Positions 37,865 to 51,210 of a stretch of 64,000 nt of DNA are shown here, piece after piece (within the stretch, counting starts at the first letter, position 1; each line of letters opens with the position of its first letter). The notes under the pieces were generated by a model, which had not been told where the DNA came from, did no database searches, and saw only the letters and a program-made list of their open reading frames with translations. A program made the position numbers and the translations under genes. Where the stretch lies: NCBI GenBank assembly GCA_051531975.1, contig JAOPTT010000004.1:96001-160000 (forward strand). The letters run 5' to 3'. The stretch is from Spirochaetaceae bacterium (GTDB lineage Bacteria; Spirochaetota; Spirochaetia; DSM-2461).

Positions 37865-39118
37865 TTAGACCCTTTTAATGTAAATTCTAGAGTTTCTCTC
37901 AGAGTTATAAATATCCTGTTTCCACTCTGGTAGATCCTCTATTGTTCCTTTTTGGAAACCAATAGACTCAAACCAGTCAGAGGTTCTTGTTGTTAATACA
38001 AAAAACGTTTTGATACCTGTTTCTGTACCTTTTGTTATTAGGTATTCAACAATGGCTTTACCTGTACCCATCTTATTAGAGGAAGATGCTGTTGCAAGAC
38101 CTGCAATTTCACCTATATCACCATCTTTTAAGTGAAGTGCACCACAAGCATGTATTTTTTTATCAATTTCATAAACAACATAGTCATCCAATGTGTCTTT
38201 AAACTGATCAACTGTTCTTTTAACAAGTATTCCTTCATTTACAAAAGGCTTCATTAGATTCATCACATCGGTTATATCTTTAGACATCATTGGTCTAATC
38301 TGCTCATATTCGTTGGCATGAATCATTGTTCCAACACCGGTATTAGAAAATATCTCTTTTAAGATTACACCCTCTATTCTGCCATCAACTATATGAACTC
38401 TTTTTACACCATTGTTACAAGCTTCAACACCATAATCTACTAGAGACTTTGTTTCACCTTGATATAATTCAGCTTCATTTAAGTCCATTCTGCTAAGACC
38501 ATTTAATCTTTCGTGTTCTCCTATAAAAAACAACTTACTAGACTTTAGGGTTAAACTAATCGCTGTTGCAAGTTCAGTACTACTTATATTGTATGGTTTA
38601 CCTATTGAGTTCCAGCCTATACATGGAAAAATTGGTACAAGATCATCACCAATAATTTTAAGTAGTGACTCTTTAGAAATCTTATCTACAACTCCTGTTT
38701 CCTGATAATCTACACCATCTAAAACACCCTTTCCTCTAGCATGTACCCAGTTCCCAATAACTGCAGGTATCTTAGATCTGGTTAAAGAAGTCATTACTCT
38801 ATTTGCAACATCAAATGCTGCCATTTTAATAAATGGGATAGTCTCATGGGTTGAGATTCTAATACCATTGTTCATAGTTGTTTTTACATTATATTGCTTT
38901 AAAATTCTATCTATATGATTATGGGCACCAGGGACAATTACAATGTTAATACCAGCATCTTTTAACATTGCTAAATCTTTAATTAATCCATGAAAGTTAT
39001 CACTTTCTAAAATACTATTCTCTATCTGAAAAACAAAAGTTTGTTCCTTAAATCTTCTAGTATAATAAAATACCTCTCTAATTAGATCTACACTCTCTTT
39101 TAATTTATCTCGTTTCAT
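37865..39118 (-). CDS. argA: Amino-acid N-acetyltransferase (AAK + GNAT domains)
   Basis: GVDYQETG, GVKRVHIVDG, EIFSN.GVGTMI, GILVKR, FVLTTRTSDWF. Confidence 0.88.
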   Translation of the reverse strand: MKRDKLKESVDLIREVFYYTRRFKEQTFVFQIENSILESDNFHGLIKDLAMLKDAGINIVIVPGAHNHIDRILKQYNVKTTMNNGIRISTHETIPFIKMAAFDVANRVMTSLTRSKIPAVIGNWVHARGKGVLDGVDYQETGVVDKISKESLLKIIGDDLVPIFPCIGWNSIGKPYNISSTELATAISLTLKSSKLFFIGEHERLNGLSRMDLNEAELYQGETKSLVDYGVEACNNGVKRVHIVDGRIEGVILKEIFSNTGVGTMIHANEYEQIRPMMSKDITDVMNLMKPFVNEGILVKRTVDQFKDTLDDYVVYEIDKKIHACGALHLKDGDIGEIAGLATASSSNKMGTGKAIVEYLITKGTETGIKTFFVLTTRTSDWFESIGFQKGTIEDLPEWKQDIYNSERNSRIYIKRV

Positions 39119-40365
39119 AGGTTTCCTTTTTTTAAGAAGTAGCTGTCCAGCATATCCTGTTCAAATTCTTCATTTGAGCTATATTCTCTATTAAATACAT
39201 CCATCCAGAGTTTTTTATCCTCCATACACATGTAAAAAAATACATCCCTATGCCATTTATCGAAGGAATTGTATAAAAAGCTGAACATTTTATTCTTAAT
39301 ATCGTAGGTATATGACTGTTTCCCCTCTGCATCGGCTAAAGGAATCTGTAAAATCTTGGATTTGAAGTTTCTACTTCTAATCTGTTTAATAACTGGCTTT
39401 ATAAAAGTTAAAGTACCAATGGATATTAAAGCTACCATTTGGGAGTTAAAATTATCCATTATCTTTGTGGCTATTTCCTTGTATTCATTTTCCCATCCAG
39501 TGTAATAAACCATAGGGTGAAAGTGGAAGCCAACTAATATTCCCTTATCATGTATCTGCTTTGCTGCTTCTAATCTTTCAGATAATGATGATGTTAAATG
39601 TTCCTCGTTATCTATAACTGTTTGCGTATTTAACGACCATGTACAAATTATATTTTTAGGAACCTGACACTCTAGTAGATACTTTATGTTGTTCGACTTA
39701 GTTTTAAGTTCCAATATTACATTAGGGTTCTCTCTGGCAAAGTTAAATAGGTGCTTTAAATTATCTTCTCTATTACCCCACATCAGAGAGTCGGAAGATT
39801 GCCCTGTACCAATATGATACCTTTTATTAGAGTCTAGTTCTAAATTATCTAACTTCAATTTAAGGTTCTTTTCAAAGAGGATTTTTCCACCTTTATAAAA
39901 AGACTGGATTGTACAATAACTACAGTCATAACCACAGTTAATAACAGAATCTAATGTTTTTAAATTACAACACCTTGTTTTATCCGATGCTACCGGACAG
40001 TCTCCTAAAATGGTTCTATCCTCTTTAATATCTACAAACTTAATATCATCTTTTTTATAATCCGATAGGGGAGTGAATCCCTGGTAATCTGTGGGTTCAT
40101 TCTTTAGTTTTAACCAGGTCTCTTTTACAATCCCAGTCATGTAAGCATTCAGAGCTTTATCTTTTAATTCTGACTCTGCTTTTGGCCAGTAAAACTCTAA
40201 AGCTTCCTCATCCCAGGACTCTAGGTCTATAGATATATCTATTAATTGTTTAATATCCTGATACGATAATCTAAACTCGCTAGCAACATTAGTGATAAAT
40301 AATCTGTTAATTCCCCCTAGCCTTAGCCAGGGTTTTGTATCAAAAAACTGGGATATTTTACTCAT
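39115..40365 (-). CDS. Spore photoproduct lyase-like radical SAM protein
   Basis: CGYDCSYC radical-SAM motif, GTGQSSDSL, LELKTKS, WSLN, GFHFHP, CME. Confidence 0.78.
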   Translation of the reverse strand: MSKISQFFDTKPWLRLGGINRLFITNVASEFRLSYQDIKQLIDISIDLESWDEEALEFYWPKAESELKDKALNAYMTGIVKETWLKLKNEPTDYQGFTPLSDYKKDDIKFVDIKEDRTILGDCPVASDKTRCCNLKTLDSVINCGYDCSYCTIQSFYKGGKILFEKNLKLKLDNLELDSNKRYHIGTGQSSDSLMWGNREDNLKHLFNFARENPNVILELKTKSNNIKYLLECQVPKNIICTWSLNTQTVIDNEEHLTSSLSERLEAAKQIHDKGILVGFHFHPMVYYTGWENEYKEIATKIMDNFNSQMVALISIGTLTFIKPVIKQIRSRNFKSKILQIPLADAEGKQSYTYDIKNKMFSFLYNSFDKWHRDVFFYMCMEDKKLWMDVFNREYSSNEEFEQDMLDSYFLKKGNL

Positions 40366-40607
40366 TAGCCAATTTTAAACTGTTTTAGATTTCTATGCTA
40401 TATCAGGATATTTAAAACATACTAATATTCTGTATTCAGTTTTTTAAAAACACCTTACTTGGATATAACATATAAGAAGTCATATCGTTGTAAAGTTTAT
40501 TCATATATCGGGTATAAGTATGATTTACTGTTAAAGTTATAGTACTTTCGGCTGATATTGTTCAATTAAAACTTTATATGTGTATTTAGGGTAACTATAT
40601 ATAAGTC

Positions 40608-40675
40608 ATAGGGAAAATCCCTATATGAAATGAAGAGTCTGCCTCATATACGGATAAACTATCGGATGGTATATT
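40608..40675 (+). promoter_or_regulatory. Copy 1 promoter: palindrome box 1 (40608-40624), box 2 ATGA-N10-TCAT (40630-40647), extended -10 TGg-TATATT (40670-40675)
   Basis: Read directly; spacing identical in all three copies. Confidence 0.75.
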
Positions 40676-40681
40676 TAGAAC

Positions 40682-40818
40682 ATATTAAAAAGTAATAAAA
40701 ATAAAGTTAATTAAAAAAAGGTTTTTGTTTTTATTTAAAAAAGTAAGATTAAAGTGAATTGAAAAAAGTAAAAGTTTATTTAAAAGTTGAGGGTTTGTAA
40801 TGGTACAAACCCTTTTTT
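40682..40818 (+). ncRNA. Putative small RNA, copy 1 (~137 nt; 7 AAAGU motifs; no C in the body upstream of the terminator)
   Basis: Lies between the -10 box and an intrinsic terminator; no RBS-led ORF; TSS inferred. Confidence 0.65.
40790..40818 (+). terminator. Intrinsic terminator, copy 1
   Basis: AGGGTTTGTA-atgg-TACAAACCCT + T-run. Confidence 0.85.
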
Positions 40819-40826
40819 ATTTATAA

Positions 40827-41420
40827 TTAGCCTCTATAATTTAGAGCAGATTTAAAATTATGTTTGTTAGTTATGAATATTTGTTTTTTGAATGATATAA
40901 AGTCAATATCCCCATCTAGTTTAAAAACTTCTTTTTCATCAAGATCTACTAACATATTATCAGTTAAAACAGTGTTTGCAAATTGTCTAACTTTTTTTGT
41001 ATTCCAAGCGGCTGAAACTTTTCTAACTGAGTATAATTCCTGATCATCAAATATTAATCTTGCTACATAAAACCAAGATCCTAATAGTTCATCAGGCGTT
41101 ATTGCTAGTTCGGGTTTAGGTGTTGAATTTATAGTCTGAAGAATTTCATCAAAGTCAGTTTCACTATTTTCTATAACTAGGGCGTTATTTGGTTCTTCGT
41201 TATTTTCTTTTTTTAGATCTGTAATACTTTTTATATAATAAATTTTATTTGTAGTTATTCCTTTTAGCTTAAAATGTAGATCACGTTCTAATTTTAGTTC
41301 TTTAATACTGTATTTTGCTTTTTTATCTCTAAGGGTTCGTTTGACTATAAAAAAGGTTAATTTTGCATCATGCCAGTTTACCTCTTTTAGATTGTCTAAT
41401 ACTTGATCCATTTCTTGCAC
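40827..41420 (-). CDS. Kiwa KwaB-like (DUF4868) protein, C-terminally short, no kwaA partner
   Basis: FFIVKR...AKYS, ETDF..I, ELLGSWFYV, VRK.S..W.TKK, LVDL...VFKLDG.IDF, K.NF.SALNYR match my recollection of DUF4868 proteins; start re-assigned to GTG 41420, 6 nt from a GGAG RBS. Confidence 0.62.
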   Translation of the reverse strand: MQEMDQVLDNLKEVNWHDAKLTFFIVKRTLRDKKAKYSIKELKLERDLHFKLKGITTNKIYYIKSITDLKKENNEEPNNALVIENSETDFDEILQTINSTPKPELAITPDELLGSWFYVARLIFDDQELYSVRKVSAAWNTKKVRQFANTVLTDNMLVDLDEKEVFKLDGDIDFISFKKQIFITNKHNFKSALNYRG

Positions 41421-41461
41421 TTTTTTCTCCAAACTTTTTTTATATACTAATAACCCTTACT

Positions 41462-41488
41462 ATATCGGCATAAATACTTATAACTAAA
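41462..41488 (-). promoter_or_regulatory. Possible sigma28 (FliA) promoter for the KwaB-like gene
   Basis: Minus strand TTTAGTTA-N11-GCCGATAT vs consensus TAAAGTTT-N11-GCCGATAA. Confidence 0.5.
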
Positions 41489-41713
41489 TAGGGAAAATCC
41501 CTATGTAAAATGAATAAATGACCTCATATACGGATATCAGATGTGATGTTATATTTAAATCATATTAAAAAGTTAAATAAATAAAGTTGATTAAAAGAAA
41601 GTATTAAGAAAAAAGTTTAAGTTTTATTTAAAAAAAGTAAGAGCAATGTTTATTTCAAAAAGTATTTTTTAATTAGTATTCTAAGGGAATGTAATGGTGC
41701 AGTCCCTTTTTTT
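41488..41713 (+). repeat. Dispersed intergenic element, copy 2
   Basis: Box 1 41488-41504, box 2 41510-41527, TATATT 41550-41555, terminator 41683-41713. Confidence 0.93.
41562..41713 (+). ncRNA. Putative small RNA, copy 2 (~152 nt; 6 AAAGU motifs)
   Basis: Same architecture as copy 1; terminator AAGGGAaTGTA-atgg-TGCAgTCCCTT + T-run. Confidence 0.62.
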
Positions 41714-41831
41714 ATGCCCTTTTTCTATAATTAATCACACTGACAAATTAAACTTATTCGGTTGTCTATAACATTTACAAAAGCCTTAAAGAAATTACTT
41801 ATTCAAATCTCCTATTAGTGGTTGTTTTTTG

Positions 41832-41860
41832 TTGACAGCGAGCAATTGCTCACTTAGTAT
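41832..41860 (+). promoter_or_regulatory. sigma70 promoter with a palindromic operator in the spacer
   Basis: TTGACA-17-TAGTAT; spacer contains GAGCAATTGCTC (41840-41851). Confidence 0.75.
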
Positions 41861-41914
41861 ATTGTAGAGCTCTATCTCTACAAGGTATAAAACCAATATT
41901 AGGAGAAACATAAA

Positions 41915-43921
41915 ATGAAAAAATCTACAAAAAGAGGATTAATTATCCTTGGAGTGATTATCTTATTAATAACATATGTTGGAGTAACTGTTTCAGTAGA
42001 TCTAAAAAATAACAATGCTATTGTAAAGATTCCACGTGATAAACCTGAAAGTGGTGAAGGGAGAGGTAGTGTTGGTGATGTCCTTGGTCAGATTATTAGG
42101 GACGGAGAGTACACCTCTAGTATGATTAGAACCATTGATTATTTAAATGGTCGACATGACTGTGCTGATTTCCGACTTCCTGTAGCTATGCACCTATTAT
42201 ATGAATTCCCTGATAAACTAACAAATGAAGATCTTACTGATTTAAAACAGGCAGTTTTAAACTTTAAATATTGGATGGAAGACCCAGGTTATGACAGTAT
42301 GTGTCACTGGAGTGAAAATCATCAGATTCTTTTTGCAACAGGAGAATATTTAGCCGGTCAGTTATATCCTGATACAGTTTTTACTAATACAGGAGAGAAG
42401 GGGTCATGGCATAAAGAAAGAGGTAAGTCCCGGGTTTTAGCATGGCTTGAACAACGTTGGAACCATGGGTACATAGAGTGGAATTCCAATACATATTATA
42501 AAGAGGACATCGCACCACTTGCAGCACTAATTGAGTTTTCTGGGGATGATGAGGTACTAATAAAAGCACAGATGGTTATGGATCTTATGATGTACGATAT
42601 GGCAAGCCAATCCTTTAAAGGGGCATTTGTTTCAACTAGTGGACGATCCTATGAAACTAAAAAAATGGCTGGTCATCAATCATCCATGAAACGTTATACT
42701 GAGATTTTAAGTGGATATGACGTAGATTCTAATTTTCCAGAAGACATTTATGGTGGTAACATGGATATAACCTTCATGACTTCTAAGCGATATGAAATTC
42801 CTAGTGTTTTCAAAAAAATAGCCAGAGATGATAAAGATACTAGAATTATTAAAGCATCTACAGGTTTAGATTTAACAGAGCTTAAAGGATATGATCTGAT
42901 AGGACAGGAACCACACCAGATTTTAATGCAGTGGGGAATGGAAGCCTTTAGTAATCCTGAGATTGTTAATAACTCTATTAAATATATTGAAGATAATGAA
43001 ATGTTTAAAAACTCAGACCTTTATGCCTTTAAGGACTTTAACTTCAAGATACTTAAAAGATTAAACTTAATACCAACTATAAGTAAGCTGATAAATCCTC
43101 AATCAAACGGTGTTGCAATCCAGAGAGCTAACCAGTATCTATATAAAACCCCCTATTATAGTATCTATACTGCTCAGGCATATCACCCAGGTTTTTATGG
43201 AGATCAACAACATATTGCAGGTGTTACATTATCTAATGATCTTAGTGTTTTTAATGCACACCCAGCAGTTGATGAGGGTGATCGTGGACCTAATGGCAAC
43301 TCGCCTAAATACTGGGTTGGCCAAGGTCACTTTCCTCATACTGTTCAACATGAGAATGTTAACCTATCTATCTACCGGACTCCTAAAAAGAAAGGTATGA
43401 TGGAGGCAAAGCTTCTTGATTATACCCATGGATATTTTCCAGAGATACAATTTGATGAATCCTCCATCGAGGGCAACTTAGCTTTTGGTAAGTTAGGAGA
43501 TGCTTATATCGCTTTTATAACGACCAACGATCTTAGTTACAAAAAGTATGAAGAGATTACTCGGGATTGGCAGGGTGAGAATTATGATCTAATCCAACCA
43601 GGGAAAGAGGTTTACTGGATTACGGAAGCATCTGATGTAACTGTTGATGGTTCATTTAGTACTTTTAAATCTAGAATTAAAGAACAAGCAAAAACTATAA
43701 CCTACGATGGTAAAAAAATCTCTTATACCTCTATGGGTAGAGAGTTAAACCTAGAGTTTAAAGGTGACTTTAAGGTAAACGGCGAGGTTATGGATCTTAA
43801 TTACGATCGTTTTGATTCTCCATATATTCAGGCTAACCGAACACCAACTGAGATGACGTTTAAGTTAGGTGATAAAGAGTTATACCTAAACTTTAAGAAG
43901 ATGATTCGAGAATATAACTAG
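41915..43921 (+). CDS. Membrane-anchored conserved hypothetical protein (possible polysaccharide lyase/heparinase-like fold)
   Basis: 668 aa, N-terminal TM anchor, R.DCADF, WSENHQI, EWNSNTY, GDQQH motifs; AGGAG RBS; fold is inference. Confidence 0.6.
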   Translation: MKKSTKRGLIILGVIILLITYVGVTVSVDLKNNNAIVKIPRDKPESGEGRGSVGDVLGQIIRDGEYTSSMIRTIDYLNGRHDCADFRLPVAMHLLYEFPDKLTNEDLTDLKQAVLNFKYWMEDPGYDSMCHWSENHQILFATGEYLAGQLYPDTVFTNTGEKGSWHKERGKSRVLAWLEQRWNHGYIEWNSNTYYKEDIAPLAALIEFSGDDEVLIKAQMVMDLMMYDMASQSFKGAFVSTSGRSYETKKMAGHQSSMKRYTEILSGYDVDSNFPEDIYGGNMDITFMTSKRYEIPSVFKKIARDDKDTRIIKASTGLDLTELKGYDLIGQEPHQILMQWGMEAFSNPEIVNNSIKYIEDNEMFKNSDLYAFKDFNFKILKRLNLIPTISKLINPQSNGVAIQRANQYLYKTPYYSIYTAQAYHPGFYGDQQHIAGVTLSNDLSVFNAHPAVDEGDRGPNGNSPKYWVGQGHFPHTVQHENVNLSIYRTPKKKGMMEAKLLDYTHGYFPEIQFDESSIEGNLAFGKLGDAYIAFITTNDLSYKKYEEITRDWQGENYDLIQPGKEVYWITEASDVTVDGSFSTFKSRIKEQAKTITYDGKKISYTSMGRELNLEFKGDFKVNGEVMDLNYDRFDSPYIQANRTPTEMTFKLGDKELYLNFKKMIREYN

Positions 43922-43940
43922 ATATATCAATTGTTGATAT

Positions 43941-43963
43941 AAGGAGCCCCTTGGGCTCCTTTT
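43941..43963 (+). terminator. Intrinsic terminator
   Basis: AAGGAGCCC-ctt-GGGCTCCTT + TT. Confidence 0.75.
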
Positions 43964-44022
43964 AAATATAGAATAATAAATTTTCTAGACGGAACTTGTA
44001 TTACGAAAGTAGTGTAGATTTA

Positions 44023-46200
44023 TCACTCAACATCAAAATAAGATATTTCAGATATAATACTAGACACCATCTCTTTATTGGTTAAACTAACGTTCATTAT
44101 ATCATCTACAGCAGTTTTTATTTCAGAAGTACTCGATGTAATTTCATCTATTTGAATAGTGCTGTCCTCTGCCATCTCTTTAAGTTTTATCACTTCGGAT
44201 AGTACAAGAGAGCTTCCAGCTTGGATCTCAGAGGCTCCGCCTTTAACAGTGATTGCAATCTGGCTCATATGATCCAAAGATTCTAGAATCTGCTCGCTGC
44301 CCTGCTTCTGTTCAATAACTGCCATTCTAACTTCTTCACTTCTTCCATTAACTGTTGATATCATAGTTTGAATATTTGTAAAACTATCTACAGTATCTTT
44401 TGAACTTATAACTATATCATTAATCAATATATCAATGTTTTTTAGAATATCTGAAACTCCACGACTCTGTTGAGTTGTAGACTCTGCTAATTTTCTAATT
44501 TCGTCAGCAACAACACTAAAACCTTTTCCTGCTTCTCCAGCATGAGCAGCTTCTATTGCTGCATTCATTGCTAATAGATTTGTTTGACTTGCTATATTGT
44601 TAATGATCTGGTTCGTCTGCATTAGTTTTTTTGACTCCTCAGCTATAGTTTTTATCTGATTACTACTAGTGTCTACTTTTTGCTGACCCAATTTACTTGC
44701 TTCTGTTAAATCCACAGTTGATTGATAAACCCTGTCCATATTTTCTGAAACACTAACTATTGATCCAACCATCTCTTCTATTGAGCTTGAGGATTCTGTA
44801 ATTTGATTATTTTGTTTGTTAATAGATTCATTTAAAGATTCAATATTACTGGAAATTTCTGTTACAGCAGCAGTTACCTCCTCAACACTATCTAGTTGTG
44901 ATCTGAAATGACCATTTATTGAGGTTATATTTGATGATACTAAAGATATTGAGGCACTAGATTCTTCAGAACTTGAAGACAGAGTGTCGCCAACTTCTCC
45001 TAATGATATACAACTACTTTTATTTTTTCCTATAATTTGAATTAACTTTTTAACCATTCCCATAAATGATATTGAGAGATCGCCAAGTTCATCATTCTTA
45101 AAAAGAGGTTTAGCTCCATGTTCCGTATCAAAATCTACTTTTAGATCACCATTAGCTACTTTTGTTACTACATTTTTGATAGCTAATATAGGTCTATAAA
45201 TATCCCTAATAATATAAATGCTAAAAAGTACTAAGCAAGTAAGTATAATTGTAATAGAGATGATATATAACCACATAGATCTTTTTGCCAATGATTTAAA
45301 GCTAGTTATAGTTAAATAGAAGTCTTCAATTAGTTGCAGTTCTACATCAAGCATAAGATTAATCTTTTTTGACATAAGATCGTACCAATGAGTTGGATCA
45401 ATTTTACCAAGTGTATCAGAACCCGCTTTTTCAAAGGCTATATCTCTTAGCCTCTGTACTTCTATTACAACATCTCCACTTAATGATTCATTATATATTT
45501 TTTGTTGGTGTGGTTCAGCGTCCGAGAGAAAAACATTAATAAAAACATCTTGACTTACTACGAGATTATTAAAGGTTTTGAAACCTTCAAAATCCAAACG
45601 GTCTGCGGCAAAGGCACTACTTAGAACAGCTCTCTCAATTCCTGCCCTCTCTTTTCCCATAAGAAAATTACTATATGCATTTAAACTTTTTCTAATTTCA
45701 ACAGTAGGAGTATTATATCCAATATAACGGATCAGATCTAAAATCATTTTATGCAAGTCTGTATACCATTTGATTCCTACGTCTATGCTTAAGTTATCTT
45801 TATTGATACTTTTTCTATGACTAATTAATCCTTTAGTTTCAGCTATAAAATTATTTACTTTCGTATTAAATTCTGACCCAAATGATTCCGTGTCAATTTC
45901 TGATAAATAAGTTATTAATTCATTAAGCTTTTTATCAGTGAGAAGTCTCTGTTGTGGTAGTTCTGATGTAAACTTAAGCCCAGCGCTACCTATAAATCCG
46001 GCAGTCATACCACGTTCTTTCTGAGATTCATGTACAAAAGCGCTCATTTTTACAGATATTGTAGTTAATATTTCCGAGTTATTAACATCCCTTAAGTGAG
46101 TTGTTAGATTAGTTATAGTGATAGCTGAAAAAAATAGAATTATTATCATTGGTAATATTGTAAGTAAAGATATTTTGGATTTGATTGTAAACCGTTTCAT
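44023..46200 (-). CDS. Methyl-accepting chemotaxis protein with NIT (nitrate/nitrite-sensing) domain
   Basis: VHESQKERG...GF and [12 protein letters not shown] motifs; [21 protein letters not shown]. Confidence 0.9.
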
Positions 46201-46277
46201 ATGGATTTCCTTGTAATAACCTCTTATGATATTGGTTATTATTACTATTATAAGCTAAATAATAGGTTGTTACAAAT

Positions 46278-46901
46278 CTAATGAGCTTTTTTCATTTTAT
46301 TATTCTTATAAGTCTGTTGAAGTTTTACCATTTGTCTGAATATTGATATTAACCCATCGGGGTTGATATCCTTATTACATACTCCAGATTCCTGTAGCTC
46401 TTTAATTAAGAAATAAGTTGACTCAATTGTTGAAAGGCAAAAATTTGCAGGCTGTTTTTTTATTTCAAAAGCCGATCGATACTCTTTTTTAAATGATAAT
46501 TTGGGCAGATTCAGAAGTGATGGGCTTCTTGTTATCATTTTTTTTGCAAATGACCATGTTGCATCAATTAAAAAAATCAATAATTCCCTATCTTCCCCAT
46601 ATTTCTTAAAATCAAATGTTTGAGCAAAATGTGCATCTTCATCGGGGTAGAGAACCATAGGAAAATATTCGGGACTGTTTATTAGTTCTTGTACTCTTAT
46701 GTTATTATCAAATGTTTCATCTATAATTATTTCTGAATTAACTATTGTTAAACTTGCTAACCGACCAGTACCTGTTTTTTGTTTATAAGCTTCTTTGGGA
46801 TGCATTAAAAATACAAACTTAATATTAGGCTCAAAAGGTTCTATATATTTGCAATAACAAGTTTTAATGGGCCTATAACATTTGTAACACTTCGTAATCA
46901 T
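46278..46901 (-). CDS. DTW-domain tRNA-uridine aminocarboxypropyltransferase (TapT/YfiP family)
   Basis: CxxC...CxC, MHPKE, TGRL, LYP, IDATW, LSTIES. Confidence 0.88.
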   Translation of the reverse strand: MITKCYKCYRPIKTCYCKYIEPFEPNIKFVFLMHPKEAYKQKTGTGRLASLTIVNSEIIIDETFDNNIRVQELINSPEYFPMVLYPDEDAHFAQTFDFKKYGEDRELLIFLIDATWSFAKKMITRSPSLLNLPKLSFKKEYRSAFEIKKQPANFCLSTIESTYFLIKELQESGVCNKDINPDGLISIFRQMVKLQQTYKNNKMKKAH

Positions 46902-46934
46902 TTAAGCAGTCTACCATAATTTCCCTATTTATAA

Positions 46935-47159
46935 ATAGGGAAAATCCCTATATAAAATGAAGAGTATGCCTCATGTCCTAAATTAGAATGTGGGTGTATA
47001 TTTAGAACATATTAAAAAGTTATATAAATAAAGTTAATTAGAAAAAAGTTTTAAGAAAAAAGTTACTTATTTATTTAAAAATGTAAGAGCAAAGTTTATT
47101 GAAAAAAGTAAAAATTTATTTTGAAATCTAAGGGTCGTAACAGTACGATCCTTTTTTTT
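46935..47159 (+). repeat. Dispersed intergenic element, copy 3
   Basis: Box 1 46935-46951, box 2 46957-46974, TATATT 46997-47002, terminator 47130-47159. Confidence 0.93.
47009..47159 (+). ncRNA. Putative small RNA, copy 3 (~151 nt; 6 AAAGU motifs)
   Basis: Flanked by two minus-strand genes, so the + strand promoter and terminator serve no CDS; terminator AAGGGTCGTA-acag-TACGATCCTT + T-run. Confidence 0.68.
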
Positions 47160-47166
47160 GTCCATT

Positions 47167-48027
47167 TTATTTTGTTACTCTAAAATGATATGGCGAAATC
47201 CCAGTATTCTTTTTAAATTGAGATGAAAATTCATATTGTGATTTGTAACCAAGTTCATCTGCTATCTGTTTTATTGATCTATCCAGGGATATTAACATCT
47301 GACAAGCCATATCAATTCTTCTTCTAACTATATACTTCCCAGGAGATACTCCAATACTCTCTTTAAATACTTTTCTAAATGATTCATAACCTAAGCCATT
47401 ATTATTACAATACTCTATTAGATTTATACGCTGGCTTAAATCTTTAGTTAAATCAGAACAGCTTTTATCTACCACTTTCTTAGGGATATCTCTTTGATCT
47501 TTAAGTTTACACTGGTTAAATATGCTTTGTAAAAGAGTTATACTTTTGATTAACAGGTCAGGTAGTTCAGATTCGGCGCAGTTTTCTAGTTTTATCATAC
47601 AGTCAAAAATGCTATCTTCTATAGTTTTATTAGGTGCCAGTTTATATACAGGGATTGTTCTATTTATGATTCTCATAGATACCAAAAAGTTAAATATTTC
47701 TGTACCAAAATCCATATAACACTCAGACCACTTACTGTCAGGATCTAATATTGTAGTATGAGTTTCTCCTGGGAATCTTTGGAAAATTGATCCAGATTTT
47801 AATTTGTATTGATTCCCTTCTGAATCAATATATAAACCAGAACCTCTAATTACATATATTATAGAATAGTAGTAGAATTTAGAGTCTTTTTCATCAATCT
47901 TCTTACCAAATTTATGTAAAAAACCAAAACCTAATTGCCCTCCAGCTTCATTTATACTAACCGACCGTATTACTTTGTTGTCTAGTGTATTATCTATTCC
48001 TTTATAACTCATAATACAAAATACCAT
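47167..48027 (-). CDS. AraC-family transcriptional regulator (divergent from beta-galactosidase)
   Basis: Cupin-like N domain; FRKVFK...GVSP, IADELGY.SQY.FS..FKK.TGISP; exact start uncertain. Confidence 0.9.
   Translation of the reverse strand: MVFCIMSYKGIDNTLDNKVIRSVSINEAGGQLGFGFLHKFGKKIDEKDSKFYYYSIIYVIRGSGLYIDSEGNQYKLKSGSIFQRFPGETHTTILDPDSKWSECYMDFGTEIFNFLVSMRIINRTIPVYKLAPNKTIEDSIFDCMIKLENCAESELPDLLIKSITLLQSIFNQCKLKDQRDIPKKVVDKSCSDLTKDLSQRINLIEYCNNNGLGYESFRKVFKESIGVSPGKYIVRRRIDMACQMLISLDRSIKQIADELGYKSQYEFSSQFKKNTGISPYHFRVTK

Positions 48028-48087: not shown

Positions 48088-51210
<3,123 letters not shown>

Follow-up and report, generated by a model that had tools for sequence, protein, structure and literature searches.

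We analysed a window of 64,000 nucleotides (nt) from a Spirochaetaceae bacterium (GenBank assembly GCA_051531975.1, contig JAOPTT010000004.1, positions 96,001 to 160,000 of the forward strand) and found that an intergenic element present there in three copies, hereafter called the unit, belongs to a real, conserved, genus-restricted and uncatalogued family of candidate small RNA (sRNA) genes. Each unit carries two palindromes, a -10 box, an A-rich body of repeated 14-nt modules and an intrinsic terminator. The units are probably transcribed non-coding RNA genes, a conclusion drawn from sequence comparison. A fuller reading, in which they would be stand-alone, activator-dependent sRNA genes whose products act as a multivalent protein decoy, is proposed here only tentatively and is weighed below against its alternatives.

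Identification and copies of the units

A repeat search of the window returned two families of three direct copies that together span the whole unit. The first lies at 40605-40754, 41485-41634 and 46932-47081 (69-79% identity) and the second at 40711-40818, 41605-41712 and 47051-47158 (70-75%). The units themselves extend over 40608-40818 (unit 1), 41488-41713 (unit 2) and 46935-47159 (unit 3), all intergenic and all on the plus strand. They are 70-79% identical, with a mean column identity of 83% in their three-way alignment (A1). When unit 3 was searched by blastn against the whole genome (hereafter G000; 5.46 Mb in 29 contigs, 31.5% G+C, 98.5% complete), units 1 and 2 were recovered with E-values of 1e-43 and 3e-42, and the next-best match was a 31-nt A-rich stretch with an E-value of 0.002. 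This gap indicates that the similarity between the copies is far beyond chance. Searching with a profile of the three window copies added one further and more divergent copy, located on a different contig (G000:C3:232861-233048, minus strand; nhmmer E-value 3.5e-17).

The initial annotation of the window, made from its sequence, had described three self-contained direct copies at these positions, each reading ATAGGGAAAATCCCTAT, 5 nt, ATGA(N10)TCAT, 22 nt and TATATT, followed further on by a GC hairpin and a T-run. The repeat search and the alignment agree on the copies and their limits, the layout holds, and the three hairpin sequences that it quoted are correct. The units are also self-contained, since homology begins at or just before palindrome 1 and ends at the T-run. 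The proposal that these were three sRNA genes stands in part: the units do form a conserved non-coding family whose terminator covaries, but they number four in this genome instead of three, and the status of sRNA gene is a predicted one.

Distribution and evolution of the family

By blastn, each of the three remaining genomes of the genus (G001, G002 and G003) has related elements, and none of 37 genomes from other genera or families does. We built a covariance model, R1, from nine aligned copies (alignment A3; 191 positions, with the terminator helix as the sole structure), to which units 1, 2 and 3 score 150.4, 131 and 147.9 bits. Scanning related genomes with such a model had been suggested along with the initial annotation. 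In the 38 genomes of the GTDB family, which are the same 38 genomes as those of the GTDB order, R1 identified 24 units, at unrelated loci in all four genomes of the genus: 4 in G000, 5 in G001, 7 in G002 and 8 in G003. The 34 genomes of five sister genera had none. Across the class, 151 evenly sampled genomes were scanned with stricter filters and gave matches in G000 and G001 only (none in the 149 others).

We also scanned about 186,000 species genomes with the exact pattern TCCCTATNNAAATTGAG-N8-CTYAT. It matched seven loci, of which six, in two Spirochaetales metagenome-assembled genomes (MAGs), were all confirmed by R1. The seventh, in a deltaproteobacterial MAG, scored 20 bits over the motif only and was attributed to chance. 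A relaxed pattern matched 20 loci in metagenome contigs, none of which is a real unit; two weak R1 matches among them (23-31 bits) were rejected, one of which, locus L074, resembles coding sequence.

Mean pairwise identity of the units is 0.57-0.72 depending on the part compared. Compared between genomes, the promoter module and the body each average 0.57 and the terminator 0.69. Three pairs are in tandem or nearly so (units 1/2, L039 a/b and L045 a/b). In a FastTree reconstruction of the 22 full units, printed without support values, the four G000 copies form one clade and the copies of G001, G002 and G003 are intermixed. The tree suggests that several paralogue lineages predate those species and that G000 underwent a private expansion.

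Rfam 15 had no match at gathering thresholds anywhere in the window and gave only noise at E ≤ 10 over positions 40300-47500. The sole match touching a unit was sau-19, on the terminator of unit 3, which we rejected (21.6 bits for a gathering score of 80). Full-text searches of the literature on small RNAs in spirochaetes returned papers on Borrelia transcriptomes and RNA-binding proteins together with unrelated ones, and none on free-living spirochaetes, sequence motifs being unsearchable in such texts. We call the family undescribed on the grounds of these literature searches and of the lack of an Rfam match, which also agrees with the initial annotation, where the units were not recognised as any described RNA family.

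The promoter module and its upstream sites

The best-conserved stretch of the unit is TCCCTAT-N2-AAAWTGAG, and the most informative alignment columns are TCCCTAT, AAaTTGAg, CTtAT, TAttaT and cAT. Palindrome 1 (TAGGGA-N5-TCCCTA) has a right half, TCCCTAT, that is near-invariant in 23 copies and a left half that drifts without compensation. It reads ATAGGGAAAATCCCTAT in unit 1 (40608-40624) and lies at 41488-41504 and 46935-46951 in units 2 and 3. Palindrome 2 (AAAWTGAG-N8-CTYAT) follows 2-3 nt further on, as ATGAAG-N6-CCTCAT in unit 1 (40630-40647) and at 41510-41527 and 46957-46974 in the two others. About 22 nt beyond it stands a -10 box of the form TAnnnT, which is TATATT in the window (40670-40675, 41550-41555 and 46997-47002, plus strand) and TATTAT, TATAAT or TAATAT elsewhere; a conserved cAT lies at the expected transcription start. 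The module as a whole (78 columns) is nearly free of indels, in which the body is rich.

The pattern of conservation and the fixed distance to the -10 box point to protein-binding sites. In A4, a 25-row model alignment that includes one terminator row read backward and two partial rows, palindrome 1 has 73% of cells paired and 2 of 7 pairs compensatory, and palindrome 2 has 77% of cells paired and none of 5 pairs compensatory. Given this lack of covariation, we regard both palindromes as putative DNA sites and not as RNA helices. If transcription starts 7 nt after the -10 box, they are centred near -66 and -43, respectively. There is no -35 box 16-18 nt upstream of the -10 box, and a sigma-70 consensus scan calls none of these promoters. 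The missing -35 box and the class-II-like position of palindrome 2, the putative activator site, suggest that the promoter probably needs an activator. In about half of 23 units, judged by eye, an extra TTCCC(T/C)A-like half-site containing CCC lies 21-23 bp upstream of TCCCTAT; that of unit 3, TTTCCCTAT at 46920-46928, was likewise found by eye, unscored, at 23 bp. Its distance of two helical turns suggests a third contact for the presumed regulator.

A hidden Markov model (HMM) of the promoter module, searched against the 5.46-Mb genome, recovered the four units and nothing else (E ≤ 1.1e-10; next match E 1.4). The presumed regulator would thus have no other strong site of this composite type in G000. 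As a search for a wider regulon, this gave no further site, and matches to simple regular expressions outside the units were isolated and partial.

Several other readings of this region were tried and rejected. A simple scan flags palindrome 1 of units 1 and 2 as a minus-strand terminator, but it has no T-run. Sigma-54 (-24/-12) and sigma-28 promoters were looked for by eye and discarded. TTGAGT lies 34 nt from the -10 box and was not retained as a -35 box.

The terminator

Units end with a 10-11-bp hairpin containing G+C, followed in 21 of 23 copies by a T-run of at least five. In unit 1 (40789-40818, plus strand) the stem has 11 bp and the loop is ATGG; the terminators of units 2 and 3 are at 41683-41713 and 47130-47159. 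Both the terminator scan and covariation identify this element. In A3, aligned with MAFFT, pairing holds in 97.8% of the cells of the helix and compensatory changes affect 7 of its 10 pairs, a result reached by none of 500 column shuffles, and helices slid along the alignment as controls are only 31-57% paired. The counts in A4 are similar (96.6% paired, 8 of 10 pairs compensatory), in an alignment that was fitted to the model and favours them. We conclude that the hairpin is probably a terminator under selection for ending a plus-strand transcript. The initial annotation had taken the maintained pairing as a sign of selection on RNA structure; the hairpin does covary, but what the pattern supports is selection for plus-strand termination and not a structured functional RNA.

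In G003, one pair of matches overlaps on opposite strands (L055:1448-1536, plus, and L055:1501-1690, minus), and the terminator there scores 33 bits from the opposite strand too.

The body and its repeated modules

The predicted RNAs span 40682-40818 in unit 1 (about 137 nt), about 41562-41713 in unit 2 and about 47009-47159 in unit 3, on the plus strand, with starts assumed 7 nt past the -10 box. Their bodies are composed of 52% A, 32% T, 11% G and 4.5% C. Over 23 bodies, which are homologous and hence not independent, AAAGT occurs 72 times and AAAAGTT 39 times; the numbers expected from first-order shuffles are 28.5 (z 11) and 7.6, respectively. There are 1-7 AAAGT per body (median 3), with 6-7 in the window copies. 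Their spacing is 14 nt in 21 of 49 intervals and 15 nt in 8 others, and in units 1 and 3 Tandem Repeats Finder detects arrays of period 14. The body thus consists of 14-nt AAAAGTTAATTA-like modules, degenerate and variable in number, that are repeated in tandem. The weaker copies (L055, L056, L059 and L060) retain only one or two AAAGT modules.

In the folding of eight predicted RNAs, the terminator was the only consistent structure. The bodies gave weak, non-homologous A-U hairpins (z -0.4 to -3.5), and neither a conserved body fold nor an alternative antiterminator fold was found. We also searched the bodies for short functional motifs. Anti-Shine-Dalgarno (anti-SD) 4-mers occur in 1 of 23 bodies, and runs of at least four ARN triplets form 16 stretches in 13 of 23.

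The units are non-coding, as the initial annotation had held. Open reading frames (ORFs) of at least 20 codons differ among the three window copies, no peptide is shared across the 22 full units, and three of these have no ORF of at least 8 codons on either strand. Their own predicted promoter and intrinsic terminator, their intergenic position, their single strand and their lack of a conserved ORF are the generic traits expected of sRNA genes.

A proposed mode of action

Under our tentative proposal, each unit would give a plus-strand RNA of about 110-150 nt, A/U-rich and essentially single-stranded, starting about 7 nt past a TAnnnT -10 box that has no -35 partner. Transcription would depend on a factor bound to two rigidly spaced sites, TAGGGA-N5-TCCCTA near -66 and AAWTGAG-N8-CTYAT near -43, the latter in a class-II-like position. 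In the RNA, degenerate 14-nt AAAAGUUAAUUA-like modules, differing in number between copies, would precede the terminator hairpin, at which intrinsic termination would be strong. The RNA would act in trans as a multivalent decoy for a single-stranded-RNA-binding protein that recognises the AAAGUU(A/G)AUU module, as CsrB/RsmZ and CrcZ do for their own partners, and the 4-8 sibling genes of a genome would set the dose under one regulator.

Candidate partners are encoded in G000, namely one SpoVG at C6:344739-344978, one protein with an RRM_1 domain at C6:270788-270997 and one CsrA at C16:84763-84918. The Pfam profiles of Hfq and ProQ found no match in this 98.5%-complete genome, a search that would miss a divergent Hfq. 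Published work indicates that the SpoVG of Staphylococcus aureus prefers TAATT(T/A) in DNA and that SpoVG homologues bind different sequences (PMC3688583), and that Borrelia SpoVG binds RNA (PMC11086051). The presence of TAATTA within the module is no more than a lead towards SpoVG.

A more specific version of the proposal seems unlikely, although its consequences would be considerable. In it, the units would be a new type of decoy whose 14-nt AAAAGUUAAUUA array titrates a global single-strand RNA-binding protein (SpoVG-, RRM- or KH-like), under a dedicated transcription factor whose only strong sites are these promoters. If true, this would amount to a post-transcriptional master switch of a new sort, comparable to the Csr/Rsm or Crc circuits, in a lineage without recognisable Hfq or ProQ.

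Several of our own results weigh against the decoy proposal or the evidence just given for it. The RNA, the start and the 3' end of every copy are predicted from sequence alone, the start being assumed from the -10 box. The motif counts suffer from the non-independence of the copies, and the pairing counts of A4 from its fit to the model. The hairpin follows an A-rich stretch, which makes many of the terminators usable from the opposite strand. It also lies 8-10 nt from the stop codon of a convergent gene at units 1, 3 and L045a (8 nt at units 1 and 3), and part of the selection on it may thus stem from the neighbour. The partner protein has candidates only: Hfq is undetected, and GGA, the motif of CsrA, is scarce (8 occurrences, in 6 of 23 bodies, none of them in the three window units). 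The few modules left in the weak copies mean that a single conserved 5' seed fits these copies as well as a decoy does.

Alternative explanations

Such a seed is at the heart of the main alternative, in which the units are the same stand-alone sRNA genes but their RNAs act by base-pairing. A 5'-proximal AUUAAAAAGUUAAUUA-N3-AAAAGUUAAUU seed, possibly reiterated, would pair with U-rich mRNA sites containing AACUUU, and the siblings would be redundant or additive like Qrr, csRNA and LhrC. The best-conserved segment of the body is indeed at the predicted 5' end of the RNA, where many seeds lie, and it is this segment, with few other modules, that the weak copies retain. Moreover, sibling sRNAs under one shared regulator usually base-pair, according to the study of the streptococcal csRNAs (PMC3091779). 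Against this, complementarity to ribosome-binding sites or starts is absent, as the single body with an anti-SD 4-mer illustrates. For each of the four G000 RNAs, we scanned the 5'-terminal 40 nt for duplexes with 4452 ORF starts (-40 to +20; start regions only, from a crude ORF-based gene call). At the first percentile, the energies of the real sequences (-10.7 to -12.5 kcal/mol) were no better than those of the reversed controls (-10.3 to -12.2 kcal/mol), and the best duplexes were pairings of A-runs with U-runs. Just upstream of starts, neither AACTTT nor TAACTTTT is enriched; both are, if anything, depleted. The Pfam profiles also detected no Hfq or ProQ in G000. Pairing results equal to those of the control, no outstanding targets, no anti-SD stretch and single-stranded modules in variable number fit a decoy better than seed pairing. 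We thus have a slight preference for the decoy and consider base-pairing somewhat unlikely.

The remaining alternatives dispense with a trans-acting RNA. The units could be DNA elements, either dispersed cassettes of protein sites, with palindromes and 14-bp iterons like the direct repeats bound by response regulators, or small non-autonomous mobile or duplicating elements, and any RNA would then be a by-product. The conservation of the upstream DNA sites, higher than that of any other part of the unit, would fit, as would an iteron-like body with a sharp 14-bp period, the three tandem or near-tandem pairs, and the way in which units nearly fill intergenic gaps at unrelated loci without a conserved neighbour. 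Yet a pure array of DNA sites has no need of a -10 box at fixed distance or of the oriented, covarying hairpin with T-run present in 21 of 23 copies, and a 14-bp period is out of phase with the DNA helix. An insertion sequence or miniature inverted-repeat transposable element, which the initial annotation had named as an identity that would overturn its proposal, is hard to reconcile with only 4-8 copies per genome, with old paralogue lineages and with flanks in which, by eye at 23 units, we saw neither terminal inverted repeats nor target-site duplications. We find this DNA-level explanation very unlikely. That the unit is a cis-acting leader or attenuator of the downstream gene, or encodes a very small peptide, is the least credible explanation and can be almost dismissed. 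Of the 23 units with a downstream ORF, 8 have it on their own strand, 33-211 nt past the terminator, and a repeat array before a terminator recalls TRAP-type attenuation. The 15 others face a convergent gene and cannot be leaders, in line with the initial annotation, for which none of the units served a coding sequence. The gene after unit 2 has a promoter-like site of its own, no alternative antiterminator fold is conserved, and a peptide would require the shared ORF that is missing, 3 of 22 units being without any ORF of at least 8 codons.

Comparison with known regulatory RNAs

The family belongs to a well-known kind, that of sibling sRNAs with a shared regulator site, and the unusual architecture of its body makes the search for a protein partner worthwhile. 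Qrr1-5, LhrC1-5, PrrF1/2 and OmrA/B have C/U-rich or otherwise defined seeds and known partners. Like our units, they are multicopy, partly in tandem, lineage-restricted and provided with a shared regulator site and individual terminators. To our knowledge, none has an A-rich body of 14-nt repeats, and we detected no homology to them, Rfam having no match.

The CiaR-dependent csRNAs of Streptococcus are close in organisation. They are encoded by 2-6 intergenic genes per genome and are RNAs of 51-202 nt with an intrinsic terminator (PMC3091779). Their promoter has a TTTAAG-N5-TTTAAG direct repeat (NTTAAG-N5-TTTAAG) 10 bp from the -10 box and no -35 box, and they were predicted from a regulator site, a -10 box and a terminator, on the assumption that transcription starts 7 nt downstream of the -10 box (PMC3091779). 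The units share with them paralogous intergenic genes, a regulator site at fixed distance from a -10 box that lacks a -35 partner, and intrinsic termination. The units differ by the two palindromes upstream of the -10 box in all copies, which replace the TTTAAG direct repeat, and by a body with a 14-nt repeat array instead of an anti-SD or anti-AUG stretch or a 5' stem-loop. They also come from an unrelated phylum and show no sequence similarity.

The other relevant group acts by titration. CsrB, RsmY and RsmZ are RNAs with reiterated motifs that titrate an RNA-binding protein, and the sponges of CsrA among them (CsrB/RsmZ) have many GGA motifs, mostly in hairpin loops. This feature is not seen in the units, where GGA is scarce. 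CrcZ of Pseudomonas is described as a 407-nt RNA with six (A-R-N)n stretches titrating Hfq, under sigma-54 and CbrB (PMC4063720). The units resemble CrcZ/CrcY and CsrB/RsmY/RsmZ in being built of short single-stranded motifs that recur in differing numbers from one homologue to the next, and in their putative activator-dependent promoter. Compared with CrcZ, the unit RNA is shorter (110-150 nt), its promoter has no visible sigma-54 -24/-12 elements, only 13 of 23 bodies carry an ARN run of at least four, and Hfq is undetected in G000. The motif differs as well: the units have AAAGUU(A/G)AUU at a 14-nt period, instead of GGA or AANAANAA, and their binding of a protein is putative.

Almost nothing is known of RNA-based regulation in free-living spirochaetes. 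The family offers a concrete entry point, since its sharply defined putative regulator site is unique to 4-8 predicted sRNA promoters per genome, and an RNA made of 14-nt repeats, with no anti-SD stretch, hints that a protein binds it, in a lineage where neither Hfq nor ProQ is detectable. It is also a candidate new family for Rfam. Its reach is limited to one poorly studied marine spirochaete genus, for which three of the four genomes are in 29-280 contigs.

Genomic context and minor observations

The gene neighbourhoods of the units have little in common. The strands of the flanking genes in the window are as initially annotated. Upstream of unit 1 lies an SPL-like radical-SAM protein (39115-40365, minus). 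Unit 2 is followed by a gene for a 668-amino-acid protein with an N-terminal membrane or signal segment and no Pfam family at E ≤ 0.001 (41915-43921, plus), whose TTGACA-17-TAGTAT promoter-like site, also noted initially, is at 41832-41860. Next come a NIT-MCP chemoreceptor (44023-46200, minus) and a DTW-domain protein (46278-46901, minus), and unit 3 is followed by an AraC-type regulator (47167-48027, minus) and a LacZ-like protein (48091-51210, plus). We found no recurrent neighbour family or adjoining regulator across the units. AraC-type neighbours were considered as a conserved partner and rejected: they flank 3 of 24 units, in a genome with 111 HTH_18 matches, and the two that we compared share only the helix-turn-helix domain (34% identity over 67 amino acids).

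A metatranscriptome of the same sample (one small run) gave a single 138-nt piece, at 45601-45738 within the chemoreceptor gene, with none on the units, and is uninformative on the expression of the units. Many coding regions of G000 open with sequence that is similar, and not complementary, to the modules: the first 25 nt of its ORFs contain AAAGTT 197 times and AAAAGT 237 times, compared with about 120 and 135 per 25-nt bin elsewhere, an excess explained by MKKV-type N-termini.

Finally, a 201-amino-acid ORF (40827-41432, minus) with a partial match to KwaB (PF16162, profile positions 3-84 of 186) sits exactly between units 1 and 2, direct repeats with an offset of 880 bp, and we saw no adjoining KwaA-like partner. 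One possibility is that this ORF is what remains of a Kiwa defence gene; another is that a duplication spanning it gave rise to units 1 and 2.

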